Positions 35,257-49,102 of a stretch of 64,000 nt of DNA are shown one piece after another. Source of the DNA: an uncultured delta proteobacterium (lineage in GTDB: Bacteria > Desulfobacterota > RBG-13-43-22); the NCBI GenBank assembly GCA_963802945.1, contig CAWDKY010000014.1, positions 64,001-128,000 on the forward strand. The letters are read 5' to 3'. Below the pieces are notes generated by a model. It made no database searches and had not been told where the DNA came from. It saw only the letters and a program-made list of their open reading frames with translations. The translations under genes were made by a program, and so were the position numbers. Every line of letters starts with the position of its first letter. The stretch's first letter is position 1.

Positions 35257-35285
35257 TTGACATGAAAGCCTGTTTTCCTTAAATT
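35257..35285 (+). promoter_or_regulatory. sigma70 promoter of glp-hdr operon
   Basis: TTGACA-17nt-TAAATT just upstream of the leader terminator. Confidence 0.65.
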
Positions 35286-35314: not shown

Positions 35315-35403
35315 AATGATTGGGGCACGAGAATAAAGAGTAAGCCCTGATAGATGATGAACATTTAGGAAAAGTGTTCATTGTCCGTCAGGGCTTTTTT
35401 GTT
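35315..35403 (+). promoter_or_regulatory. GlpP-type antitermination leader with intrinsic terminator
   Basis: GGGC-ACGAGAATAAAGAGTAA-GCCC purine-rich loop overlapping a ~25-bp stem (35342-35396) plus U-tract, between promoter and glpA; glpP in same cluster. Confidence 0.75.
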
Positions 35404-35503: not shown

Positions 35504-37051
35504 TTGAAGACCCAGGTACTCATTATCGGGGGAGGGGCTACCGGCACCGGACTGGTGCGGGACCTGGCTCTTCGCGGTGTTCAATGCCTTCTGGTTGAAA
35601 AAAAGGACATCAATGCCGGGGCTTCGGGAGCGAATCACGGTCTTTTGCACAGCGGGGGCCGATACGTCGCCTCCGATCCCACCGCCGCCCAAGAATGCCG
35701 AAATGAAGCTGACATAATCAGACGTGTCGCTCCTCAATGTATTGAAGATACGGGCGGTCTTTTCGTGGCTGTGGAAGGCGACGATGAGAAATTTATCGCC
35801 GATTTTCCCCGCATGTGCGAACGGTCCGGAATCCTCGCGGAAGCGGTTGATCTAAAGGAAGCCCGTATTCTGGAACCGGCCCTTTCGGAAAAGATCATCG
35901 CCGCCTACAAGGTAAGAGATGGGGCCATTGATCCTTTCAAGCTTTCCCTGGATAATCTTTCCCAAGCCCAAGAACTGGGATCCATCCTTTTACGTCATAC
36001 CATGGTGTCAGCCTTCGACATTCGGGAATCAAAAATCAAATCGGTCCATTTACAACAGATCCAGACTGGAGAGGAGATGGTGGTTGAAGCCGATATGGTG
36101 GTCAATGCCGCCGGTGCCTGGGCAGGGCTGGTGGCCGGTTTGGCTGGAATTTCCATCCCAGTCCTCTATTCCAAAGGAAGCCTGGTCATTACCCACAATC
36201 GGATTGCCCGGAGGGTGATCAACCGTTTGCGTGCTGCCTCCAATGCCGATATCTTGGTGCCGGGAGGCACGGTTTCAATTTTGGGAACCACTTCAATCAG
36301 AATAGAAAATCCGGACGAAGTCTATCCAACAGTTGAAGAGATCGATTTGATGATTGAAGATGCCAAGGCCATGATCCCGGCTTTGGAGACGACAAGATAC
36401 ATCCGTGCCTACAGCGGCGTACGGCCGCTTATCGGATCGCTAACCAGCGGAGATGACCGCAGTGTGAGTCGCGGCTTTGCCCTCATGGATCACGGGGCTC
36501 AGGGTATAGATAATTTTATCACCATAACTGGCGGAAAGCTGACCACCTATCGCCTGATGGCCGAAAAAGCGGCCGATTTGGTTTGTCATCGTCTGGGGAT
36601 TTCAAGATCATGTCTAACCGGAACCGAACCGTTGCCAGCGTCACAGCTCGCTCAATGGACCGAACCTGCTTTGGCTCCTAAGACCTGGCTGAAAGGTCAT
36701 AGTCCGGAGGATCTTCTCCATTGTGAATGTGAGATGGTTCCCAAAAGTACGGTCGATGCCATCATTGCATCCCTTCATCAGCAGGGAGGGAGGGTTGATC
36801 TTCAGGGCATCGGCTTGCGCAGCCGGATTGGCAAAGGTCCCTGTCAGGGCGCTTTTTGCGGACCGCGACTTAGTGCTTATCTCTTTGAAAAAGGAGAGCT
36901 TGATCCCGGTCAATGCTTAGACGGTCTTCGGGATTTCGTCCGCAGCCGTTGGAAAGGCCTCTATCCTATCCTCTGGGGAGAGCAGCTTCAACAGTCTGAA
37001 TTATTGGAGGCGATGCATTGCGGAATACTGGGTTTGGAATTGGAGGAGTGA
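35504..37051 (+). CDS. glpA: anaerobic glycerol-3-phosphate dehydrogenase subunit A
   Basis: GGGATGTG FAD motif, GANHGLLHSGGRY, GGKLTTYRLMAE, C-terminal CECE...GPCQGAFC [2Fe-2S] region. Confidence 0.93.
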   Translation: MKTQVLIIGGGATGTGLVRDLALRGVQCLLVEKKDINAGASGANHGLLHSGGRYVASDPTAAQECRNEADIIRRVAPQCIEDTGGLFVAVEGDDEKFIADFPRMCERSGILAEAVDLKEARILEPALSEKIIAAYKVRDGAIDPFKLSLDNLSQAQELGSILLRHTMVSAFDIRESKIKSVHLQQIQTGEEMVVEADMVVNAAGAWAGLVAGLAGISIPVLYSKGSLVITHNRIARRVINRLRAASNADILVPGGTVSILGTTSIRIENPDEVYPTVEEIDLMIEDAKAMIPALETTRYIRAYSGVRPLIGSLTSGDDRSVSRGFALMDHGAQGIDNFITITGGKLTTYRLMAEKAADLVCHRLGISRSCLTGTEPLPASQLAQWTEPALAPKTWLKGHSPEDLLHCECEMVPKSTVDAIIASLHQQGGRVDLQGIGLRSRIGKGPCQGAFCGPRLSAYLFEKGELDPGQCLDGLRDFVRSRWKGLYPILWGEQLQQSELLEAMHCGILGLELEE

Positions 37052-37164
37052 AAAAGGATTCACCTAAACGGGATACTGGACTCCAATTTGAGTAATTACT
37101 TTAGGAAAGATTGTATATCAAAATTGATGGGTAAACTAGCCTGCCATAAACGCAGGTGTATTAT

Positions 37165-37227
37165 CGTCATGCCGGACTTGATCCGGCATCCAGTTTTTTT
37201 CTGGCTTACGGCTTTCGCCGGAATGAC
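37165..37227. repeat. GTCA...TGAC-bounded REP-like palindromic doublet
   Basis: gtcatgccggacttgatccggcatccag ... ctggcttacggctttcgccggaatgac. Confidence 0.75.
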
Positions 37228-37283
37228 TATCTCGAAATACACCACAAGGAAAATGCCTTTAGAAGTTTAAAACTCAAATTAAG

Positions 37284-38578
37284 ATGCATGATCTGGAACC
37301 TATCAAAGTCGATTTGACTGTCATCGGGGCCGGAATGGCCGGTATGGCGGCCACGCTGTTTGCAGTCAACCGTGGTCTATCCGTGGCCCAGGTGGGTCGT
37401 ACCAGTGAGATCGGATTTGCCAGTGGTTTATTCGATCTGCTCGGTGTACATCCCATGAGCGAAGGGAATCAGTGGGATGATCCCTGGGCAGGTATCGAGG
37501 CCCTGGTAAAGGATATCCCTGAACATCCTTATGCCCGATTGAGTAAAGAAGAAATCCGGTCCGCCCTTAGCGAACTGCTAGATTTTTTAGAAGGGGCAGG
37601 TCTTCCCTATTCCAGAAATCCCGATCGTAATGTCAGGATCTTTTCTTCCCTCGGGACGATCAAAACGACCTATGGTACACCCAGGACCATGTGGGCAGGG
37701 GTGCAGGCCCTGGAGCAGAAACGCCCCTGTCTGATCGTGGATTTCAAAGGGCTTAAAGGGTTCAGTGCCGAATTGATTGTACATAACCTACGCTCCCGGT
37801 GGCCGGGTTTACGCGCCGTCAGGATTACTTTCCCTGGAACGGAACGCAGAGAGGAAGTATTACCGGAACACTATGGCCAATGCCCTGATCCTGGCAGGCA
37901 ATCGGAAAAAGCTTGCCCAGCGGATACGACCGGAAATCAAAGATGCACAGAGCATAGGTCTGCCGGCCGTTTTGGGATTGTATCAATCCCCCAAAACGGC
38001 TTCTGATCTATCGGAATTGATCGGCGTTCCGGTCTTTGAAATATCCTACCATGCCGCCTTCTATTCCAGGGCTGCGCCTAAAAGAAGCCTTTGAACGGGG
38101 ACTGCGAGAAAGAAGGCCCTATTATTTTTCTCAAAAGAGAGTGGTTGAAACACGACTGGAGCCGGGCGGGGAATTTAAAATCGGTATTGAAAGTCCAACC
38201 GGAAAGCAGGTGATTTTATCCCAGGGGATCATTCTGGCCTCAGGGCGATTTATCGGCGGGGGATTGAGGGCCGATCGAAAGCATGTCCGGGAGACGATTT
38301 TTGATTTACCTGTTTCCCAGCCCGAGAGCAGAAATAAATGGCACAGGGAAGACTTTCTTGACTTGCGAGGCCATTCGATCAATCTGGCCGGGGTGGAGAT
38401 TGATGATTATTTCCGTCCGCTGAATCATCATGGCCAATCAGCTTTCAATACCCTGTTTGCAGCGGGTTCGATTCTTGCCCATCAGGATTGGAAACGGACG
38501 AAATGCGGTTCCGGCCTGGCCGTGGCCACGGCCTTCGGGGCAGTAAAGGCTTTTATCAATATCACTCGTAATGGATGA
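37284..38578 (+). CDS. glpB: anaerobic glycerol-3-phosphate dehydrogenase subunit B (two +1 indels near 37870 and 38043, probably errors)
   Basis: GAGMAG FAD motif; three overlapping ORFs join into GLPAVLG...VFEIPTMPPSIPGLRL...LASGRFIGGGL...GSGLAVATA, typical of GlpB. Confidence 0.88.
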
Positions 38579-39158
38579 ATGGTATTTAAAGATGACGGAT
38601 TCCATAACACCGGGATATGAATTTACCGAAGAAGTCGAAAAAGGCGGATCCTTTAAGGTTGAGGTCTGCTTCCAATGCCGGAAATGCACCACCGGCTGTC
38701 CGGTGGCCTTTGCCATGGATCTGTTTCCCGACGAAGTCATCCGAATGGTGATTTTAGGTCAACGGGAAAAGGTGCTGAGTTGCCAAACGATCTGGATATG
38801 CTCAGCCTGTGAAACCTGTACTACCCGTTGTCCCAACGAGGTAAAAATCGCCGAACTCATGGATCATCTCAAAGAAATGGCTATAAGGGAGAACGTTCCC
38901 TGTCCAAAGCCGCAGGTTTTAAGTTTTCATAAAATTTTTTTAAAAAATATAGAAAAGCGGGGACGGATATTTGAATCAACGCTTCTGCCGGCCTATCTGC
39001 TTCGAAGCGGTCAGCTCCTTAAAAGATGGAAAGACGGCACTTGGCTGGCAGAACTCGGATTAGGATGGAAGTTGTTTTCCAAAGGGAGAATGCCCCTGTG
39101 GCCGCATAAAAATAAAGGGAAAAAGGAAATCAGCAAGATTTTATTCAGGGGTAAATGA
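38571..39158 (+). CDS. hdrC: heterodisulfide reductase subunit C-like 2x[4Fe-4S] protein
   Basis: CFQCRKCTTGCP and IWICSACETCTTRCP. Confidence 0.88.
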   Translation: MDEWYLKMTDSITPGYEFTEEVEKGGSFKVEVCFQCRKCTTGCPVAFAMDLFPDEVIRMVILGQREKVLSCQTIWICSACETCTTRCPNEVKIAELMDHLKEMAIRENVPCPKPQVLSFHKIFLKNIEKRGRIFESTLLPAYLLRSGQLLKRWKDGTWLAELGLGWKLFSKGRMPLWPHKNKGKKEISKILFRGK

Positions 39159-39203
39159 AAAAGCAGTCATCTAAGTCCATGTTGACAAATAGTTTCCAAG
39201 ATT

Positions 39204-39335
39204 GTCACCCCGGCGGACCCCGGATCAAGTCCGGGGCAGGCGCCGGGGTCCAGAAATCAAACGGGAGAACTTTGAATAAAATTAACGGCAGGAACCGTAC
39301 TCAGTCACCTGGATTCCGGCGTTCGCCGGAATGAC
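39204..39335. repeat. GTCA...TGAC-bounded REP-like doublet with nested inner palindrome
   Basis: gtcaccccggcg[gaccccggatcaagtccggggcagg]cgccggggtccag ... ctggattccggcgttcgccggaatgac. Confidence 0.8.
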
Positions 39336-39394
39336 GTTAATTTGGTTTTGGCGAAATTTAGAAATTCATAAAATAATTGTATACGAAAAGAAAT

Positions 39395-40252
39395 ATGAAA
39401 TTTTCTTATTATCCAGGGTGTTCGCTTAAAGGGACGGCCAAAGATTATGCCGAGTCGATCCTGGGCATCTGCCAGTCGCTTCAGATCGAACTGGAAGAAA
39501 TTCCGGATTGGAACTGTTGCGGGGCAACCGCGGCCCACAGTATTGATCATCAGGCGGGTATTGCTCTGGCTGCCAGGACCTTGAGTCTGGCGGCTAAAAT
39601 GCCCCATTCCCAAATGCTGGTCCCTTGCCCTTTGTGTTTCAACCGATTGAAAACGGCCTCTTATGCCTTACAGCAGGATCAAAATAATCGCTATAAAATA
39701 AAATTACCGGATTCGGTTCCAAAAATTTTGGATCTGGCAAATTTTTTTGCTACCGAAACGATGTTGGAAATCACGGCCCAAAAAATTCAAAAGCCCCTTA
39801 GGGGGTTAAAAGTGGTCTGCTATTACGGATGCATGGCCAACCGGCCGCCGAAGATCACGGAAGCTAAAGATTTTGAAAATCCTCAAGCTCTGGATCGTAT
39901 CGTGGCCAATTTGGGTGGCACGGTAATCCCCTGGCCTTATAAAACAGATTGTTGCGGTGCCTCGCAGGCCTTTTCGTTGGAGGATATTGAAAACAAACTG
40001 GTGAAAAAACTTTTAGATATGGCCCGGCGTGTCGGAGCACAGGGCATCGTGGTTTCCTGCCAGATGTGTCAGGCCAATCTGGATATGCATGATAAAAGGG
40101 CCGGAGGTGGGTCGAAAAATTCATCGTCTTTGCCGGTGTATTATTTTACCGAGTTGATTGGACTGGCCTTGGGAGTGAAGGGAGTTCAGAAATCGTTGTC
40201 GCGTCATATCGTTGATCCCATACCCCTTCTAAAAGGTCTGGGACTTTTTTGA
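39395..40252 (+). CDS. hdrB: heterodisulfide reductase subunit B-like CCG protein
   Basis: YYPGCS, WNCCGA, YYGC, TDCCGA, CQMCQANLD. Confidence 0.9.
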   Translation: MKFSYYPGCSLKGTAKDYAESILGICQSLQIELEEIPDWNCCGATAAHSIDHQAGIALAARTLSLAAKMPHSQMLVPCPLCFNRLKTASYALQQDQNNRYKIKLPDSVPKILDLANFFATETMLEITAQKIQKPLRGLKVVCYYGCMANRPPKITEAKDFENPQALDRIVANLGGTVIPWPYKTDCCGASQAFSLEDIENKLVKKLLDMARRVGAQGIVVSCQMCQANLDMHDKRAGGGSKNSSSLPVYYFTELIGLALGVKGVQKSLSRHIVDPIPLLKGLGLF

Positions 40253-40305
40253 GTGTAGTTGTAATTTCATTTTTTTAAAAAGAACTTTCAGGGACTATTA
40301 ATAAT

Positions 40306-40468
40306 AAGCACGAAATTCGAAGTCCGAAATTCGAAACAAATTCAAATGACCAAAATTAACAACCTCTTTCCCTCTGAGACGAATATTGTCAAAGGAGTGG
40401 ATGTTTCTGTCCATTTGATATTTATTATTTAGATTTGTTTCGTATTTCGATATTAGGATTTCGGATTT
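40306..40468. repeat. long heptamer-unit hairpin (CGAAATT / ATTTCG)
   Basis: aagcacgaaattcgaagtccgaaattcgaaacaaattc ... gatttgtttcgtatttcgatattaggatttcggattt. Confidence 0.8.
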
Positions 40469-40524
40469 AATAAAACTAATGAACTCATTCGGGGCGGATA
40501 TCCAGTAATTGACAAGGGACCCAA

Positions 40525-43500
40525 TTGAATAACCAAATCCAAAAAATCGGATCCATTACCGTCATCGGCGGCGGCATCGCCGGGATCCAGGCGGCTTTGG
40601 ACGCAGCCAATTCGGGATTTAAGGTTTATCTGTTGGAAGAAAATTCCACCGTTGGCGGCGCCATGGCCCAACTGGATAAGACCTTTCCCACCAACGACTG
40701 TTCTTCCTGCATGATGGGGCCCAAAATGGTAGAACTCGCCAATCATCCCAACATTGAAATCCTCACCCGCACTTCGCTCGAGGGTATCGATGGCAGGCCC
40801 GGAAATTTCACTATTAAGATCAAGCGTGAACCGAGATTTATCAGGGAAGACCGCTGTACCGCCTGCGGTGAATGCGCCCGGGTTTGCCCGGTGGAATTGC
40901 CGGCCGACTTCAACTTGGGTTTGAATTCCCGCAAAGCCGTCTATCAGCATTTCCCCCAGGCCGTTCCAGCGGCCTTTGCCATTGACAAGACCGGCGTATC
41001 GCCCTGTAAGCAGGCTTGCCCGGCAGGAATAAGCGTACAGGGCTATATCTCTCTAATCGCCCAGGGGCGTTATCAAGAGGCCCTGCAACTGATCAAACAA
41101 AATAACCCTTTCCCAGCCATATGCGGTCGTGTCTGCACGCACCCCTGTGAAGAGGCTTGTAACCGAAGGCAGTTAGACGAGCCGGTAGCCACCGAATATT
41201 TGCATCGCTTTGTGGCCGATCTTGATCTGAAGGCCGAATCACCCTGCCTTCCGGCCAAAAAAGAATCCAAGAACAAGAAGGTGGCGGTGGTCGGTGCCGG
41301 TCCCGGCGGTCTTAGCGCCGCTTATTATCTGGCTGTTGAAGGGTATGAGGTCTGTGTCTTTGAAGCTATGGCGGAACCCGGCGGCTGGATGCGTTACGGT
41401 ATTCCCGAGTATCGTCTGCCCCGGAATATTTTACAGGCCGAGATCGAGATCATCAGAAAATTGGGAGTGCAAATACGTACCGGAGTATCTCTGGGCCAGG
41501 ACTTTTCCATCGGCAGTCTGCGGCAGGATGGCTATGCAGCCGTTTTCCTCGCCGTTGGGACTCAAAATGGCAGACTGTTGAATGTTCCGGGGGAGAATTT
41601 AAAGAATGTTTACTCCGGCGGTGATTTCCTCAAGGCGATCAACAGCGGGCAGGGCCTGACTCTTGGGACCAGGGTGGCGGTGATCGGCGGTGGTAATGTG
41701 GCCATGGATGCGGCCCGCACTGCCCTGCGCCTTGGAGCCCAAGAAGTCCATGTGCTCTATCGGCGCAGCCGCAAAGAGATGCCGGCCAACGAGGAAGAAA
41801 TTGCGGAGGCGCAGGAGGAAGGGATTCAGTTCCATTTTTTAACGGCTCCGGTTGAATTATTGCCGAACGATGTTGGGCGGGTGGGACAAATTCGCTGCCA
41901 GCGAATGAAGCTGGGAGAACCTGATTCCAGCGGCCGGCCGAGGCCGGTGCCGATTCCCGATTCCGAATATGAGATGCCCATTGACTGTGTGATCAGCGCC
42001 ATCGATTTTACTACCGATCTCAGTTGCCTTGATCAGGACCATGAAAACAACAAGCCGGCCGTTACCCGCCGAGGAACATTGGTCGCAGATCCGGTTACTA
42101 TGGCTACATCTATTCCTGGAATCTTTGCCGGAGGGGATGCGGTTACTGGTCCTGCCACCGTAGTTGAAGCCGTCCGGGCCGGCCATGAAGCCGCAATTTC
42201 TATAGGCCGGTATTTATGTGGTGAGGATTTGGCGGCAGGCCGGGGAAGAGATTGCCGGCCAGCCGAAATTCCCGCCGGGCCTCAGGCGTCGCTTCAAAGG
42301 ACCAAGATGCCGCAACTGGCTCCTGATGTGCGCAAACGTTCTTTTGAGGAAGTGCAAACAGGGTTTAACGAAGCTCAGGCCCGGGAAGAAGCCAAGCGAT
42401 GCCTGCAGTGCGGTTTATGCAGCGAATGCTATCGCTGTCTGGAGGTCTGTACGGCTCAGGCGGTGGACCACGATATGGAGCGATGTTATGAAGAATTACA
42501 AACCGGGGCGGTTATTGTAAGCGCCGGCTTTCAGCCTTTTGACGCCCGGCTCAAGCCTGAATACGGTTACGGTTTGTGGCCCAATGTTATGACCACTCTG
42601 GAATACGAACGGATGCTTTCGGCGGCCGGCCCTTTTTCCGGCCGCATCCAGCGCCTTTCGGATGGGAAAAAGGTGCACCGAATGGCCTGGATTCTATGTG
42701 TCGGATCGCGGGATGTTGGCATCGATCGAAATTATTGTTCCTCGGTCTGCTGCATGTCGGCCACCAAGCAGGCCATGATCACCAAAGAACATGATCCTCA
42801 AATCGAGACCGCGATTTTTTTTATCGACCTGCGGGCTCAGGGCAAAGGCTTCGACCGTTTCTATGAACGCGCCGAATCGGAATCCGGCGTGCGATATGTG
42901 CGTTCTATGGTTTCACGAGTGGTCCCGATACCGGAAACCGACCGGCTGCAAGTCACTTACAGCAACGATGAGCACCGGATACAAATGGAAGAGTTCGATC
43001 TGGTGGTCCTGTCCGTAGGTTTATGCGCCCATCCATCGGCGATCAACCTGGCTGAAAGGATAGGTCTTGAGCTTAATCCCTATGGATATTGCGCCACCCA
43101 TCCGTTGGACTCAACGGCGACATCACGGCCCGGTATCTTTGTGGCCGGGGTTTTTCAAGGGCCCAAGGATATTCCGGAGACGGTCCAACAGGGCAGCAGT
43201 GCAGCGGGAGGCGCCACCGCCTTGCTTTCCGATGTGCGCGGTTCGCGTATCAGCCTGCCGGTGCAGACACCGGAGCGGGATGTGACCGGCGAGCTGCCGC
43301 GCATCGGGGTTTTTGTTTGTCACTGCGGAACCAACATCGCCGGTGTAGTGGACGTGGACCGTATCGTCGATTATGTCAAGTCTTTGCCCAATGTGATTTA
43401 TGCCGCCAACGCCATGTTTGCCTGCTCGACCGACCAGCAGCGCGAAATCAAAAGAGTCATTGATGAGCATCGCCTCAATCGTCTGGTGGTGGCCTCCTGT

Positions 43501-44955
43501 ACGCCACGCACGCATGAACCGCTGTTTCGCAACACGTTACGTGAGGCCGGGCTCAACCCGTATCTTTTTGAACTAGCTAATATCCGCGAACATGACTCCT
43601 GGGTGCATCGAAACGAACCGGAAGCGGCGACCCAAAAGGCCCTCGACCTGGTGCGCATGTCTGTTGCCCGGGCGCGGCTTTTGCAACCTTTAGCGGAAAC
43701 GCATTATCCGGTTGTTCAAAGGGCTTTGGTGATCGGAGGGGGACTGGCCGGACTAACGGCAGCTTTGACCATTGCCGAGCAAGGGTATGAGTCTGTGCTG
43801 ATAGAAAAAACACCTGAATTAGGAGGGAATGCCCGCACCCTATATTATACGGAAGACGGTGCGGATCCGGCCCAATATGTTCAGGACTTGATTCATAAAA
43901 TCAAAACAGAGCCGTTGATTACCGTCTACACCAAGGCCGAAGTGGTTGAAACCCAGGGCGTTTGTGGCCATTTGACCACCACGATTTTGAAGGAGGATGA
44001 AGCGAAAGAGATCGTTCATGGCGTGACCATTGTTGCTGTAGGCGGCCAGGAATACCAGCCCGAGGAATATCTTTATGGAAAAGACCACCGGGTGATGACT
44101 CGAAAGGAGTTTGAATCTCTGTTGGCTTTGAATCCCGAGGAGGCTAAACACTATTTGCGGGTAGTGATGATTCAGTGTGTGGGCTCCAGGGAACCCGATC
44201 ATCTCTATTGCAGCCGGGTATGTTGTACCGGGGCAGTGAAAAACAGTTTGAAGCTCAAATCGTTAAATCCGGATGCCCAGGTTTCGATTCTGTATAGAGA
44301 TATGCGTACTTTCGGATTTAGAGAAAGTTATTACTACCAGGCACGGCTCCAAGGGGTGCGCTTTTTCCCGTATGTGAGGGACCAGAAACCGGAAGTCACC
44401 TTGGAGAATAACGAGCTGCAGGTAAAGGTATTTGATCAACAACTTCGCCTTCCGGTGCAGTTGAAAGCGGACCTGCTGGTTTTGAATACGGCCATCCGAC
44501 CCAACCCCAAGGAGAAAGAACTGGCAGGAATCCTGCGTCTTCCCCTGGATCAGGATGGGTTTTTTATGGAGGCCCATCCGAAACTGAGGCCTCTGGATTT
44601 TATCAAACCGGGTTATTATTTGTGTGGTCTGGCCCAAGGGCCCAAGTTCGCTGCTGAGTCCATCACCCAGGCCCGGGGGGCCGCTGCCAGGGCTATGACC
44701 ATCCTTTCCAAAGAAATGATGACCGCCGAGGGGATGGTTGCCCAGGTGGATACGGATCTCTGCCGGGGTTGCTGCGAATGTGAGAAGGCCTGTTTGTTTG
44801 AGGCCATCCGTGTGGAACAAGACGAGGATGGGCGGAAGGCGGCTGTGGTCAACAAAAGCCTATGCACGGGGTGCGGGGCCTGTAATGTGGCTTGCCCTAC
44901 AGGTGCAGCATCTCCGGCCCATTTTCAGGATGACCAGATTGATGGGAATGATTAG
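40525..44955 (+). CDS. hdrA: HdrL-type multidomain HdrA (two HdrA modules with inserted GltD/NfnB-like FAD/NAD(P)H domain); last few codons probably frameshifted
   Basis: GGGIAG, DKTFPTNDCSSC, insert CKQACP...GAGPGG...GGGNVAMD...YRR, twice CVGSR...YCSxVCC, RIGVFVCHCG, terminal ferredoxin motifs. Confidence 0.9.
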   Translation: MNNQIQKIGSITVIGGGIAGIQAALDAANSGFKVYLLEENSTVGGAMAQLDKTFPTNDCSSCMMGPKMVELANHPNIEILTRTSLEGIDGRPGNFTIKIKREPRFIREDRCTACGECARVCPVELPADFNLGLNSRKAVYQHFPQAVPAAFAIDKTGVSPCKQACPAGISVQGYISLIAQGRYQEALQLIKQNNPFPAICGRVCTHPCEEACNRRQLDEPVATEYLHRFVADLDLKAESPCLPAKKESKNKKVAVVGAGPGGLSAAYYLAVEGYEVCVFEAMAEPGGWMRYGIPEYRLPRNILQAEIEIIRKLGVQIRTGVSLGQDFSIGSLRQDGYAAVFLAVGTQNGRLLNVPGENLKNVYSGGDFLKAINSGQGLTLGTRVAVIGGGNVAMDAARTALRLGAQEVHVLYRRSRKEMPANEEEIAEAQEEGIQFHFLTAPVELLPNDVGRVGQIRCQRMKLGEPDSSGRPRPVPIPDSEYEMPIDCVISAIDFTTDLSCLDQDHENNKPAVTRRGTLVADPVTMATSIPGIFAGGDAVTGPATVVEAVRAGHEAAISIGRYLCGEDLAAGRGRDCRPAEIPAGPQASLQRTKMPQLAPDVRKRSFEEVQTGFNEAQAREEAKRCLQCGLCSECYRCLEVCTAQAVDHDMERCYEELQTGAVIVSAGFQPFDARLKPEYGYGLWPNVMTTLEYERMLSAAGPFSGRIQRLSDGKKVHRMAWILCVGSRDVGIDRNYCSSVCCMSATKQAMITKEHDPQIETAIFFIDLRAQGKGFDRFYERAESESGVRYVRSMVSRVVPIPETDRLQVTYSNDEHRIQMEEFDLVVLSVGLCAHPSAINLAERIGLELNPYGYCATHPLDSTATSRPGIFVAGVFQGPKDIPETVQQGSSAAGGATALLSDVRGSRISLPVQTPERDVTGELPRIGVFVCHCGTNIAGVVDVDRIVDYVKSLPNVIYAANAMFACSTDQQREIKRVIDEHRLNRLVVASCTPRTHEPLFRNTLREAGLNPYLFELANIREHDSWVHRNEPEAATQKALDLVRMSVARARLLQPLAETHYPVVQRALVIGGGLAGLTAALTIAEQGYESVLIEKTPELGGNARTLYYTEDGADPAQYVQDLIHKIKTEPLITVYTKAEVVETQGVCGHLTTTILKEDEAKEIVHGVTIVAVGGQEYQPEEYLYGKDHRVMTRKEFESLLALNPEEAKHYLRVVMIQCVGSREPDHLYCSRVCCTGAVKNSLKLKSLNPDAQVSILYRDMRTFGFRESYYYQARLQGVRFFPYVRDQKPEVTLENNELQVKVFDQQLRLPVQLKADLLVLNTAIRPNPKEKELAGILRLPLDQDGFFMEAHPKLRPLDFIKPGYYLCGLAQGPKFAAESITQARGAAARAMTILSKEMMTAEGMVAQVDTDLCRGCCECEKACLFEAIRVEQDEDGRKAAVVNKSLCTGCGACNVACPTGAASPAHFQDDQIDGND

Positions 44956-44971
44956 GGCGTTTCGTGAAAAT

Positions 44972-45113
44972 AGGGTTTCAAAGATTCAGAGGTTTCGAGG
45001 ATTCAAGGTTATAATATCCGGTATACAGGTTCAGATCGGATTTCCGTGAATAGGACTTTAGAGCTCGGAACGTTAGACCTTGGCCTTGAACCTGCTAGAA
45101 TATGAGTCCTTGG
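44972..45113. repeat. degenerate octamer-unit hairpin
   Basis: ggtttcga ggattcaa ... ccttgaacc, same unit family as 15031 and 31720. Confidence 0.4.
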
Positions 45114-45136
45114 AGTAAAATTGAATTTTGGAGCAA

Positions 45137-45627
45137 TGCATGTCTTTAACTGAACCACCTGAAATCATCGCCTTCGTTTGTCACTGGTGTGCCTATGCCG
45201 GGGCCGATCTGGCGGGGATTTCCCGTATCCAGTATCCGCCGAATGTACGTCTGGTGCGGGTCATGTGCACGGGACGAATTCATTCAGGCTTTCTCCTGCA
45301 TGCCTTTTTCGAAGGTGCGCAAGGCGTTTTGGTTTCCGGGTGTCACCTCGGCGACTGCCATTACCTGGAAGGTAATGTGAAATGCCAAAAGGTGATCGAA
45401 GAAACCTGGGAGTATCTGCGGCTGTTTAGGGATTGACGAAGGGCGGCTCAGGATCAAATGGATTTCCGCCTCGGAAGGGGCCGAGTTTGCCAAGGAGATC
45501 CAAGAGTTTGTTTCATTTCTCCAAGGGCTGGGAGAAAAACCTCTCGCCGATAAAAGAAAATGGGATCTTAAAGGACTGCCATCAGCGGATAATATCGGTC
45601 TTGATAAAGGGCCACCGCTGTTAAGAG
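45137..45627 (+). CDS. mvhD: MvhD-like [2Fe-2S] domain (+1 indel near 45427); probably the N-terminus of a fusion with the downstream HdrD-like ORF
   Basis: FVCHWCAYAGADLAG, RVMCTGR, GCHLGDCHY; shifted frame continues LGIDEGRLRIKWISASEGAEFA. Confidence 0.85.
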
Positions 45628-46734
45628 ATGAGCAGATTGCCAACCTGCATGGAATGCAGCAGTTGTAGCGGCACCTGCCCGGTCAGCCGTGAAAATCCTC
45701 TATTTTCCCCGAAACAGATCATTAATCGGACGGCCATGGGACTTGAGGCCGATATCCTTCAAAGCCGCGAGGTCTGGGCCTGTCTGGGGTGTGCTCAATG
45801 CAATACACGCTGTCCGGCCCTGATCGATATCTCGGAATTCAACCGCTCCTTTCGATACCGAGCACGGGAAGCCGGGAATCCGCCAATGGAAAGCCATCAC
45901 GGCATTCATCAAACCATTGCCCGATTGCAGAGGCATCCCCTTTCGCAAAAACGTACGGACTGGGCGGAAAAGACCGGGAATTTCAAATCAACCGGGGACT
46001 ATTTTTATTTTGTAGGCTGTTTGCCTTATTTTGATATCACCTTTCGCTATCTAAATATATCACCGCTGGAAAGTGCCCGAAGCGTACTGACTCTATTGAA
46101 TCGAATCGGAATCGAACCGGTCATCAGCAATGACGAAAGGTGCTGCGGGCACGATGCCCTTTGGTGCGGCGAAGAGGACACTTTCCTGGAGTTGGCCTTA
46201 TGGAACCTTGAGATCCTAAAGGCCTCGGGAGCCAAAACCGTCCTATTCAGTTGTCCGGAAGGCTATTCGACCTTTAAATATTATTATCCCAAATATGTTG
46301 GAGAACTGCCTTTCGAGGTTGTCCATCTGGCCGAATTTTTTGCCCGTGAAATACCCAAGTCAGGGTTGAAGCTGAAACCGTTTTCCGATGGTGCGGTCAC
46401 CTATCAGGACCCTTGCCGGTTGGGACGCTGGGCCGGGATTTATGAACCGCCCAGGGAATTAATAAAATTGGTTTCAGGAACGAAACTCATTGAAATGGAG
46501 AGGACCAGAGAGAATGCCCTGTGCTGCGGAACCAGCGCCTGGATGGAATGTTCCAGTTGTTCCAAGGTCATTCAGACCGAACGACTCATGGAAGCTCAGC
46601 AAACCGGTGCGAAGAAACTGATTACCGCTTGTCCTAAATGCCGGATTCATCTGACCTGTGCTAAACTGGGAGAAAATATTGATATCGGCGTGAAAGACAT
46701 TTATACTTTTTTGGCAGAACACCTAGAAGATTAG
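45628..46734 (+). CDS. HdrD/GlpC-like Fe-S oxidoreductase (2x[4Fe-4S] plus two CCG domains)
   Basis: CMECSSCSGTCP, CLGCAQCNTRCP, ERCCGH, YQDPCRLGR, LCCG, TACPKC. Confidence 0.88.
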   Translation: MSRLPTCMECSSCSGTCPVSRENPLFSPKQIINRTAMGLEADILQSREVWACLGCAQCNTRCPALIDISEFNRSFRYRAREAGNPPMESHHGIHQTIARLQRHPLSQKRTDWAEKTGNFKSTGDYFYFVGCLPYFDITFRYLNISPLESARSVLTLLNRIGIEPVISNDERCCGHDALWCGEEDTFLELALWNLEILKASGAKTVLFSCPEGYSTFKYYYPKYVGELPFEVVHLAEFFAREIPKSGLKLKPFSDGAVTYQDPCRLGRWAGIYEPPRELIKLVSGTKLIEMERTRENALCCGTSAWMECSSCSKVIQTERLMEAQQTGAKKLITACPKCRIHLTCAKLGENIDIGVKDIYTFLAEHLED

Positions 46735-46742
46735 TAAAAACA

Positions 46743-46851
46743 AGTTCGGAGTTAAGAGTTCGGATAAAAAATCCTTCTGGACCCCGGCTTTCGCCGGGGT
46801 GACGGTTTAGCGGCTTATGGCCCCATTATTTTTTACTCCGAACTAAATACT
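46743..46851. repeat. GTTCGGA heptamer hairpin with a REP-like half (46777-46803) nested in its loop
   Basis: agttcggagttaagagttcgga ... ctggaccccggctttcgccggggtgac ... actccgaactaaatact. Confidence 0.7.
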
Positions 46852-46870
46852 CTTTTTTGGGGAGGTAGAC

Positions 46871-48352
46871 ATGGCCAAATACATCGGTGCAGTCGATCTG
46901 GGTACGACCAGTAATCGTTTCATCGTTTTCGATCACACCGGCCAAATCGTCGGGCTGTCGCAAAAAGAACATCAACAGATCTTTCCCAAGCCGGGCTGGG
47001 TGGAACATGATCCCCTGGAGATCTGGAACAACACCCAGGAGGTCATCCGCGAAGCCTTGGCCAAAACCAATGTTACCGGAGATGATATTGCGGCCATCGG
47101 TGTGACCAACCAGCGCGAGACCACGGTTGTCTGGGAGAAAGCTACCGGCAAACCTATTTACAATGCCATCGTTTGGCAGGATACACGCACGGATGTTATC
47201 TGCAACGAACTGGCCAAGCATGGAGGTCAGAATCGATGGCGCGGGAAAACCGGCCTTCCTCTGACCACCTATTTTTCAGGCCCTAAAATAAAATGGATTC
47301 TGGACAACGTCCCAGGTGCCCAAGGGAAGGCGGAGAACGGCGAACTGCTTTTCGGAAATATCGATACTTGGTTCATCTGGAATCTGACCGGCGTGCACGT
47401 CACCGACGTAACCAATGCTTCGCGGACGCTCCTGATGAATCTGAACCATCTTGACTGGGATGATGAAATACTGCAGTTGCTGAATATCCCTCGGGCCATG
47501 CTGCCGAAGATTTGTTCATCATCGGAGGTCTATGGCCAGGCCAAGGGTATCCTCAAGGGTGTGCCGGTGGCTGGTGATCTGGGCGACCAGCAAGCGGCCC
47601 TGTTCGGACAGACCTGTTTCAATCCCGGCGAGGCCAAGAACACTTACGGAACCGGATGTTTTATGCTTCTGAATATGGGCGAACGTCCGGTCCCCAGTAC
47701 CAGCGGACTGCTGACCACCGTCGGTTATAAGATCGGCCATCAGAAGGCCGTTTATGCCCTGGAAGGTTCGATCGCTATCGCCGGCGCCCTGGTGCAATGG
47801 TTGCGCGACAACCTGGGCCTGGTTTCCAAATCAGCCGAGGTGGAGGCTTTGGCCCGCACGGTCGAAGACAACGGCGGTATTTATTTCGTACCGGCCTTTT
47901 CCGGGCTGTTTGCCCCTTACTGGAGGTCTGATGCCCGGGGAGTTATCGTCGGTCTGACGCGTTTCATCAATAAAGGTCATCTGGCACGGTCCGTGCTGGA
48001 AGCCACTGCCTTTCAGACCCGTGAGGTTCTTGATGCTATGGAAAAAGACTCGGGTGTACGGCTGAAGGCCCTCAAGGTGGACGGCGGGATGGTTTTCAAC
48101 GAACTGCTGATGCAATTCCAGGCGGATCTATTGGATGTGCCGGTTATCCGCCCAAAGGTCGCTGAAACCACAGCCCTGGGTGCCGCCTACGCCGCCGGGC
48201 TGGCCGTTGGTTTCTGGAAAAATCTCGATGAACTGCGACTCAACTGGGGAAAGGACAAAGAGTGGAAACCCCAAATGGACGTATCCAAACGTGACCAACT
48301 TTACGCCGGCTGGAAAAAAGCCGTCTCACGGACTTTCGACTGGATAGGATAA
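46871..48352 (+). CDS. glpK: glycerol kinase
   Basis: [51 protein letters not shown]. Confidence 0.97.
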
Positions 48353-48517
48353 AAGCATCCGCTTGACTTTTTGCCTGTCTATCAGATATCTTTTAATTAA
48401 AGTTCGGATGTCGTTGGTTACCCTCGATCCGGGAATCGCCTCTGTGGCAGATAAAGGTAATAGGCAGCCGGAAGGCGGGGGAGTTTTTCTGAAGGGTGTG
48501 CCGAAAGGAGACTGACA

Positions 48518-49102
48518 TTGGATTTTCTGTCAATACTGCGGAACAAACCGGTCATTGCGGCCTTCAGGGATATCGAAAGCCTTCATTTTCAAAGTTTGAA
48601 TCATTCTGATGTTCTTTTTATCTTGGGGGGGACCATTTTTGAACTGCCCCGCATCGTAGAACAGGCAAAAAGGTATCAGAAACTGATTTTCGTCGATATC
48701 GATCTAATAAAGGGGATCGGAAAAGATGCCCCGGGAATCAGGTTTTTGGCTCAGCAGAGTCAGGTCAATGGAATCATCACCACTCGCAGCAATCTTATCA
48801 AAAGCGGGCAGAAAGAAGGTCTGATCTCCATTCAGAGGGTATTCGTTCTGGATTCGGAGTCTCTGAACGGAGGACTCGGGGTCATTGAAAAATCAGGTCC
48901 CGACGCCGTGGAAATCCTTCCCGGTCTGATTCTCCCCAAGGTCATGGAAAAAATAAGGCTAATTACCTCCATTCCGGTCATTGCCGGAGGGTTGATCACC
49001 CAGAAAGAAGAGATAGATGAAATTCTTGCCTCCGGGGCGATCGGGATATCTACCTCCTCATCCCACCTGTTTGATTTTAAGAGAAAGGGGAAGGATTCTT
49101 AG
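48518..49102 (+). CDS. glpP: glycerol-3-phosphate-responsive antiterminator
   Basis: FVDIDLIKG, GIITTR, IQRVFVLDS, DAVEILPG, PVIAGGLI, GISTS; TTG start after AAGGAG. Confidence 0.9.
   Translation: MDFLSILRNKPVIAAFRDIESLHFQSLNHSDVLFILGGTIFELPRIVEQAKRYQKLIFVDIDLIKGIGKDAPGIRFLAQQSQVNGIITTRSNLIKSGQKEGLISIQRVFVLDSESLNGGLGVIEKSGPDAVEILPGLILPKVMEKIRLITSIPVIAGGLITQKEEIDEILASGAIGISTSSSHLFDFKRKGKDS

Follow-up and report, generated by a model that had tools for sequence, protein, structure and literature searches.

A glycerol 3-phosphate dehydrogenase operon with a soluble heterodisulfide reductase-type module in an uncultured peat bacterium of the Desulfobacterota

We analysed a stretch of 64,000 nucleotides (nt; the window, to which coordinates refer) from contig CAWDKY010000014.1 of an uncultured peat bacterium of the Desulfobacterota, and found that its glycerol-use operon carries on the + strand the row leader terminator, glpA, glpB, hdrC, hdrB, hdrL, mvhD, hdrD, glpK and glpP, in which the genes of an anaerobic glycerol 3-phosphate (G3P) dehydrogenase are followed by those of a soluble module of the heterodisulfide reductase (Hdr) type. 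The finding suggests a complex of the Hdr type whose input module is new, and a quinone-free disposal of the electrons of G3P. Specifically, we give an even chance to the reading that GlpAB docks via GlpB on HdrD, a protein resembling GlpC, and feeds a cytoplasmic Hdr-type confurcating complex in which G3P and reduced ferredoxin would together yield NAD(P)H. The more detailed proposal, of an Hdr-class confurcating G3P dehydrogenase that is independent of the enzyme FngABC and combines a fused HdrA pseudo-dimer, two 'BC' arms and an exchangeable NAD(P)H cassette, is put forward tentatively, at less than an even chance. The genes of the row are as follows.

35504..37051, + strand: glpA, FAD-dependent anaerobic G3P dehydrogenase large subunit (TIGR03377, DAO domain)
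37284..38578, + strand: glpB, in three frames with breaks near 37872 and 38043 (NF003725)
38571..39158, + strand: hdrC-like gene for a 2x[4Fe-4S] protein (Fer4_8), start possibly at 38592
39377..40252, + strand: hdrB-like gene for a protein with two CCG domains (CCG x2), likely start ATG 39395
40525..44955, + strand: hdrL, 1476 amino acids (aa), tandem HdrA with an NfnB/GltD-type insert
45128..45436, + strand: mvhD, [2Fe-2S] connector protein (PF02662, FlpD/MvhD, 125.8 bits)
45628..46734, + strand: hdrD-like (GlpC/TfrB-type) gene, 2x[4Fe-4S] and two CCG domains by domain matches
46871..48352, + strand: glpK, glycerol kinase (TIGR01311, 759 bits, cut-off 590)
48518..49102, + strand: glpP, G3P-responsive antiterminator family (PF04309, G3P_antiterm, 195 bits, cut-off 27)

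All open reading frames (ORFs) were confirmed on the + strand between 35504 and 49102, in agreement with an earlier reading of this DNA made from its letters alone (the sequence-only reading), but mvhD and hdrD, which had been taken there for one gene, are two genes with 191 nt between them. The overlap of glpB and hdrC reported at the same time amounts to 8 nt if the ATG at 38571 is used, but relatives align from residue 8 (ATG 38592); the spacing between these two genes is ~320 nt longer in the closest relative (G005, 94% identical) than in the genome holding the row (G000). The absence of a transmembrane subunit and of glpF was borne out: a crude hydropathy scan gave no helix candidate in the row (top 19-residue mean 1.73, at a Rossmann motif), and zero matches to MIP/GlpF were obtained in the whole G000 genome.

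GlpA scored 569.1 bits on the GlpA equivalog model TIGR03377 (cut-off 552.8). GlpAB usually pass electrons through GlpC to menaquinone, and no GlpC equivalog was found in the cluster, HdrD and HdrC reaching 45.2 and 26.5 bits on TIGR03379 (cut-off 279.9) and HdrD 72.8 bits on NF008369 (cut-off 278). The earlier statement that GlpC is missing therefore stands for the equivalog but not for the architecture, since HdrD has an HdrC-like N-terminal part followed by two CCG domains, which is the architecture of GlpC and TfrB, and offers a predicted dock for GlpB.

This dock was predicted with three chains, GlpB (the G005 orthologue, 12-row alignment), HdrC (13 rows) and HdrD (35 rows), and an interface of GlpB with HdrD was obtained. 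The median ipSAE (interaction prediction score from aligned errors) of GlpB with HdrC and HdrD was 0.68, against 0.02 for the best of three controls; 58 of the 80 solved complexes in the calibration attained the mark for this score, as did 2 of 110 mismatched pairs, and these counts are rough for a three-chain job with its own alignments. The runs had at least 85% of contacts in common, with a partner pLDDT (predicted local distance difference test) of at least 84. The confident GlpB contacts listed for the best run (error <8 A) were all with HdrD and none with HdrC, involving HdrD residues 8-24 and 59-65 (the two cluster motifs), 217-221, 291-296 and 318-325, including the second CCG domain, and the score fell to 0.00 when HdrD was replaced and HdrC kept. 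This prediction is evidence, though not proof, of a docking of GlpB on HdrD and not on HdrC, as is presumed for GlpB and GlpC.

The same prediction could also describe a soluble GlpABC-type dehydrogenase made of GlpAB and HdrD, in which HdrD would be the terminal reductase (of quinone, a disulfide or another acceptor) and HdrCB-HdrA/L-MvhD would be a separate enzyme sharing the operon. The docking of GlpB on HdrD only, lost with the replacement of HdrD, and the GlpC architecture of HdrD, 2x[4Fe-4S] and two CCG domains, fit this explanation, as do one operon of the genus (G011) that keeps hdrD without hdrCB and the convergent clade described below, in which hdrD adjoins glpB. However, in the 45 HdrD loci compared, orthologues of HdrD were found directly after hdrA/L-mvhD at places without glp (L075, L084, L090, L092 and L097), so HdrD belongs to the Hdr module. 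In addition, its 45-73 bits on the GlpC models compare with cut-offs of 278-280, the row has no membrane helix and G000 has no recognised menaquinone pathway, and we regard a separate GlpABC-type enzyme as unlikely. The lack of a GlpC equivalog and of a hydrophobic helix in the row, where other Desulfobacterota have a NarI-like membrane protein with Fe-S clusters and a CCG protein downstream of glpB, and the lack of a recognised menaquinone pathway in G000 speak instead for the confurcating complex.

By model scores, the Hdr-like proteins are relatives of the HdrA, HdrB and HdrC of methanogens but not equivalogs: 698 and 963 bits were obtained on the HdrA models (cut-offs 1400 and 1100), 116 bits for HdrB (cut-off 345) and 62 bits for HdrC (cut-off 160), the HdrC-like protein also remaining below cut-off on the QmoC models. 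The features of the methanogen type are nevertheless present, i.e. two full sets of CCG cysteines in HdrB, eight cysteines in HdrC and an HdrA flavoprotein with ferredoxin domains, and HdrB matches the solved HdrB structures 5odc_B and 9sfi_C over its full length (E 2e-22 to 2e-23). HdrL begins with a short HdrA-like half (residues 10-156 and 660-900) into which an NfnB/GltD-type NAD(P)H/FAD domain (~157-650) is inserted, whereas residues 917-1476 form a complete HdrA; matches in the PDB were 9sfi_A, 5jca_L, 4ylf_B, 6tjr_A and 5odc_A. With its HdrA and glutamate-synthase-type NAD(P)H domain, and with mvhD 172 nt downstream, the protein agrees with HdrL as defined in the text of Strittmatter et al. 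(2009, PMC2702500), a fusion of HdrA and glutamate synthase with an NADH site that is followed by mvhD. The cysteines are well kept: the eight of HdrC in 12/12 sequences, the five of MvhD in 16/16 and those of HdrD in 16/16, while 10 of the 12 aligned cysteine columns of HdrB are invariant (15/15) and the other two are kept in 14/15 and 13/15. The cluster-binding cysteines of HdrB, HdrC, HdrD and MvhD are all retained in G000 and G005, two genomes without dsr genes, between which the ratio of nonsynonymous to synonymous divergence (dN/dS) ranges from 0.11 to 0.26 over every gene of the row, which argues that the Hdr module is under selection in the absence of Dsr.

The sequence-only reading had suggested a survey of glpAB-hdr synteny, and the link was found in two clades with two gene orders. 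In a sample of 14 genomes of the genus, the same row is present in seven, G000 included; it is full in G004, G005, G008 and G012, split at hdrC over two contigs in G001, and without hdrCB in G011. GlpA was above cut-off in 6 of the 21 genomes sampled for the family, the glpA of G004 being in three pieces. An HdrD orthologue (E <= 1e-60) was found in all seven glp-positive genomes of the genus and in none of the seven others, but RpoA identities place the carriers mostly in one subclade, so this co-occurrence represents few independent events. A comparison downstream of rplQ, made for the boundaries of the cassette in glp-negative genomes, was set aside because the downstream synteny is not conserved. 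Among the 37 nearest GlpA loci of species-representative genomes, these hdr genes occur only at four loci of the same genus; at the others, glpAB precede a NarI-like Fe-S membrane protein and a CCG protein ('HdrF' type), glpK, or no recognisable gene.

Outside the genus, a scan of species-representative genomes with the GlpB alignment revealed, among the best 80 of 137 loci, six further species-level genomes (loci L113, L114, L116, L117, L119 and L124) in which glpA-glpB converge on hdrD-mvhD-hdrA-hdrB-hdrC. The HdrD tree gave monophyly (100/99) both for the co-directional group (7 rows) and for the convergent group (6 rows), and each is sister to modules without glp; the GlpA tree places them in different halves and not as sisters. 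The juxtaposition has therefore either arisen twice or survived rearrangement. At one locus of the convergent type (L085/L117, 1581-4832), glpB and hdrD are separated by three genes, which encode an Fe-containing alcohol dehydrogenase, an SdhB-like Fe-S protein and a flavoprotein of the DAO family.

The row's Hdr genes are orthologous to those of a widespread stand-alone module of the Desulfobacterota, hdrC-hdrB-hdrA/L-mvhD-hdrD, which in the 45 HdrD loci has unrelated upstream genes and is often followed by more hdrA-mvhD pairs. One example in a sister genus (L026, G014:C51:88000-107999) has hdrCB-hdrA-mvhD-hdrD, after which come a second hdrA, in fragments, and a gene resembling that of a hydrogenase small subunit, with a TusA/DsrE-fusion gene on the other flank of the module. 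The wide occurrence of the stand-alone form would suit an arrangement without direct wiring, in which the module is a general balancer of NAD(P)H, ferredoxin and thiols that was brought in among the glycerol genes or is regulated together with them, and GlpAB has its partner elsewhere, for example in an HdrF-like membrane module (a NarI/Fe-S protein and a CCG protein) on contig C17 of G000. No second copy of this module type was found in G000, so the general module may be the very one that lies in the glp operon. In addition, 73 of 100 distinct GlpA loci have no nearby Hdr-like gene as a partner. Against the lack of wiring stand the adjacency in two clades that are separate and differ in gene order, the coincidence of module and glp within the genus (7/7 versus 0/7, though mostly one clade and few events) and the predicted GlpB-HdrD interface with its clean controls, and we consider it distinctly unlikely.

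The genomic background sets limits to the possible electron acceptors. Neither dsrA, dsrC nor aprA was found in G000 or G005, both of which are 100% complete by marker genes, whereas the other 12 genomes of the genus, including all five other carriers of the row, have dsrA (12/12), dsrC (12/12) and aprA (11/12); in the convergent group, dsrA was above cut-off in 4/5 genomes. G000 and G005 thus look like a sublineage of a sulfate-reducing genus in which sulfate respiration was lost. With regard to quinones, not one of the 21 genomes of the family had MenD above its cut-off (best score in G000 68 bits, cut-off 244), and no match to MqnA or MqnC was found in G000; MqnC was above cut-off in four of the family genomes (G003, G006, G007 and G019), which do not carry the row, and hence in none of the seven glp-hdr genomes. 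From these searches, quinone is likely to be lacking in G000 and the family may be largely quinone-free.

The redox potentials frame the proposed electron path. The G3P/dihydroxyacetone phosphate (DHAP) couple lies at about -190 mV, NAD(P) at about -320 mV and ferredoxin at about -450 mV, and G3P/DHAP cannot directly reduce NAD(P)+; anaerobes without a quinone-linked chain therefore need a coupling device. In the confurcating complex, GlpAB would have no membrane or quinone partner and would serve as the input, specific for its substrate, of a cytoplasmic flavin-based electron-bifurcation machine of the Hdr type. G3P would be oxidised at the FAD of GlpA, and GlpB would hand the electrons on to HdrD with its two [4Fe-4S] clusters. 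HdrD, which resembles GlpC and combines the parts of HdrC and HdrB, would play two roles, accepting the electrons of GlpAB in the manner of GlpC and forming an integral arm of the Hdr module. HdrD, MvhD, HdrC and HdrB would assemble on the tandem HdrA, with MvhD as the connector; the tandem HdrA would act as a covalently fused pseudo-dimer, with HdrD and HdrCB as its two different 'BC' arms, one for each half. In G000 and G005, electrons from G3P and from reduced ferredoxin would meet at the HdrA flavin, and NAD(P)H would be formed at the insert, in the reaction G3P + Fd(red) + 2 NAD(P)+ = DHAP + Fd(ox) + 2 NAD(P)H, which would be near equilibrium and would match the one reduced ferredoxin per glycerol that arises from pyruvate oxidation. 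The heterodisulfide couple, at about -140 mV, is close to DHAP/G3P, so G3P could stand on the high-potential side. Flavin-based bifurcation or confurcation by the proteins of the row is thus argued from their domain content and these potentials; precedents are an Mvh-type hydrogenase encoded beside HdrA-MvhD genes in G000 and FngABC, with which anaerobes couple the oxidation of G3P to ferredoxin and NAD (PMC13689815).

The sequence-only reading had proposed that bifurcation or confurcation couples the oxidation of G3P to NAD(P)(H) at the HdrL insert and to a disulfide, for example that of DsrC, at HdrB/HdrD. The domains required for a bifurcation to NAD(P)+ and DsrC are present, and five sister operons reside in genomes with dsrA, dsrC and aprA. 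However, G000 and G005, the sole members of the genus with the insert, have none of these three genes, so DsrC was rejected as the acceptor in G000 (unless its gene was missed by the assembly), and the dsr-positive sisters are without the insert. Furthermore, bifurcation of G3P electrons to NAD(P)+ and a disulfide would need an acceptor of at least about -60 mV, and confurcation with ferredoxin would fit better. We therefore hold the bifurcation to DsrC to be very improbable. The dsr-positive sisters lacking the insert would need another mid-potential partner, for which DsrC is possible there, but not in G000.

The insert occupies positions 40990-42420 of the window (HdrL residues 156-632), and at loci L113, L090 and L093 orthologous HdrA cores have an insert in the matching position. 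The inserts of three orthologous HdrL forms belong to three different insert clades, and no close donor was found, the best match outside G005 being 48-53% identical; the NAD(P)H domain therefore looks like a cassette that was gained or exchanged repeatedly.

A number of observations have to be set against the confurcating complex. NAD(P) coupling, which the sequence-only reading had proposed, is not the conserved core of the GlpAB-Hdr link, since the insert occurs in two of the seven operons of the genus (G000 and G005) and is missing from the HdrA of the other five; it is also present in the HdrL of L113, a member of the convergent group in a dsrA-positive genome. In the convergent clade, the glp and hdr sets are on opposite strands and are not co-transcribed. 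Within the row itself, the remaining spacers are long (136-272 nt) and one of them, between glpA and glpB, contains a hairpin resembling a repetitive extragenic palindromic (REP) sequence. HdrD being a cousin of GlpC, its pass in the docking prediction may reflect the family likeness to GlpB-GlpC, and the links from HdrD to MvhD and HdrA are drawn from gene adjacency alone, just as the redox argument is drawn from textbook potentials. The Pfam model of MqnA misses genomes that are positive for MqnC, and this blind spot makes it weak evidence on quinones. Finally, the HdrF-like module on C17 could offer GlpAB a membrane partner, and partners of GlpA acting in trans are common, to judge from the 73 of 100 loci given above.

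The state of glpB also bears on whether the system works. The gene covers positions 6-424 of NF003725 in three frames (positions 6-200, 187-253 and 253-424, with 275.7, 55.5 and 237.9 bits; the cut-off for a single protein is 345), owing to single extra bases at ~37872 and ~38043 relative to G005, which are uncompensated and neither of which is in a homopolymer; in all relatives glpB is in a single frame. The operon might therefore be decaying in this strain, with glpB a pseudogene and the system no longer working, and contigs from three other metagenomes that are 90-99% alike do not have the extra base at ~37872, two of the three also being without the one at ~38043. However, when G005 ORFs of at least 150 aa with an orthologous place in G000 were compared by frame (21 G005 loci), 17 of 216 conserved ORFs matched G000 in more than one frame; two of them are ORF-calling artefacts and one is glpB, so that ~15 of 214 other genes, or ~7%, are likewise split in the G000 assembly. 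The assembly thus seems to carry frequent single-base indel errors, and because the other genes are equally split, glpB is unexceptional and its frameshifts are probably assembly errors, which is the simpler reading, and the gene is probably intact in the cell. The dN/dS of glpB (0.22) is also inside the 0.11-0.26 of its neighbours, and the reads do not decide, as the only metagenome run that is at least 99% alike leaves both sites uncovered and the other three runs are only 90-99% alike. Decay of the operon is in our view quite improbable. Similar frame breaks were observed in the glpA of G004 and the hdrA of G008.

Upstream of glpA and in the glpA-glpB spacer, the following features were located.

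34960-36, + strand: tRNA-Met, which with the terminator downstream closes the ribosomal-protein/rpoA operon
35049-75, + strand: terminator, end of the ribosomal-protein/rpoA operon, upstream of the glp row
35257..35285, + strand: sigma-70-like promoter candidate TTGACA-17-TAAATT (consensus scan, 10/12 matches, pattern only)
35322..35398, + strand: leader with box TTGGGGCAYGAGA, long terminator hairpin and T-run, ~110 nt upstream of glpA
37164..37227, + strand: REP-like palindromic repeat in the glpA-glpB spacer (terminator-like match 37169-37189)

A TTGACA/TATAAT-like pair is present at the same place upstream of glpA in six relatives, and all seven genomes of the genus with the row have the box TTGGGGCAYGAGA, a hairpin with a free energy of -27 to -30 kcal/mol and a T-run ~110 nt before glpA. 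The fold of the leader has a z of -3.8, and its alignment contains 25 pairs, three of them with a compensatory change. The element is single-copy in the G000 genome and occurs only upstream of glpA in the loci of the genus; outside the genus, none was found by motif, nor by a covariance model in 46 sources (863 kb). A search of Rfam yielded only a tRNA and, on both strands, a sub-threshold match to a plant miRNA precursor at 35340-35398, which is the terminator hairpin of the glpA leader itself and was discarded. The leader hairpin is a candidate target of the GlpP antiterminator, and from the conserved leader terminator together with glpP at the end of the row, the whole row is probably switched on by G3P-dependent antitermination. 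In Bacillus subtilis, GlpP reportedly acts by read-through of a leader terminator; the two systems have in common a GlpP-family gene and a terminator hairpin in the glp leader, but the leader sequence here is specific to the genus and is a predicted target of GlpP only. The hairpin of the glpA-glpB spacer was rejected as a specific regulator, because it belongs to a genome-wide REP-like palindromic repeat of 28-66 nt with a T-run, present at more than 25 intergenic places in G000; on contig C15, a copy separates an unrelated hdrA from mvhD.

Several other features of the genome were noted. Synonymous divergence between G000 and G005 varies four-fold along the row (hdrB 0.64, glpP 0.41, glpA 0.39, glpB 0.17 and hdrL 0.15), suggesting inter-strain recombination within the operon. 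A gene of the major facilitator superfamily (MFS) downstream of the row was considered as GlpT but is of the oxalate/formate/lactate type, with 183 bits on an L-lactate MFS model, below its cut-off. G000 also encodes FeFe and NiFe hydrogenases and several formate dehydrogenases. One cluster (L192, G000:C28:10000-26000) contains an Mvh-type NiFe(Se) hydrogenase with an in-frame TGA in the large subunit and HycI, together with an HdrC/QmoC-like gene, NuoE/NuoF-like genes, a 1088-aa HdrA and mvhD.

If the confurcating complex is real, it would represent a new class of organic-substrate input for Hdr-type bifurcating complexes, the widespread hdrCB-hdrA/L-mvhD-hdrD module of the Desulfobacterota would gain a testable partner and a docking subunit, HdrD, and glycerol turnover by peat and wetland Desulfobacterota would have a concrete biochemical route. 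The dsr-positive species without the insert and the dsr-negative species with it constitute a natural experiment on the re-wiring of such complexes.

The statement of the sequence-only reading that it knew of no characterised complex of this kind is in line with our literature search, which gave no description of one and had most subscription papers and supplements outside its range. Among known systems, the row resembles MvhAGD-HdrABC of methanogens (5ODC) in having HdrA (E 6e-188 to 5odc_A), a full-length relative of HdrB, an HdrC ferredoxin fold and MvhD, with a modular electron-input unit beside HdrA-MvhD; it differs in that the input is GlpAB and not a hydrogenase, in the tandem HdrA with an NfnB/GltD insert, in the extra HdrD, in the bacterial host without CoM/CoB and in scores below the methanogen equivalog cut-offs. 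With GlpABC of Escherichia coli it shares orthologous GlpA and GlpB families, a third subunit with 2x[4Fe-4S] and two CCG domains and the predicted GlpB dock, but HdrD is no GlpC equivalog and belongs to an hdrA-mvhD-hdrD module, and no menaquinone pathway was recognised in G000. FlxABCD-HdrABC of Desulfovibrio, reportedly described by Ramos et al. in 2015, is said to receive NADH via Flx, with DsrC as the proposed acceptor and with bifurcation proposed. Both are bacterial soluble HdrABC systems with a substrate-specific flavoprotein input and proposed bifurcation (PMC7282089), but here the input would be G3P via GlpAB and the genome is without DsrC.

In Desulfobacterium autotrophicum HRM2, according to the text of Strittmatter et al. 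(2009, PMC2702500), GlpAB adjoins a membrane protein, HdrF, with an Hdr-type CCG, and loci with hdrA, hdrB/hdrC and hdrD are described; its HdrL/HdrA loci are separate from glp, whereas here a soluble module lies inside the glp operon. FngABC is a ferredoxin- and NAD-dependent G3P oxidoreductase of anaerobes (Schut, Poole and Adams 2026, PMC13689815), in which FngB and FngC (DUF1667) are described as unrelated to GlpB/GlpC and Hdr; the main text of that paper makes no mention of an Hdr-linked GlpAB ('desulfo' occurs 0 times). Neither TrxR-like (FngB) nor DUF1667 (FngC) domains were found in the 11 translated ORFs and pieces of our row. The catalytic subunit of FngABC is a homologue of GlpA, and its net reaction is the one proposed here (PMC13689815). 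If true, the proposed complex would be a second way, of independent evolutionary origin, of carrying electrons uphill from G3P to NAD(P)+.

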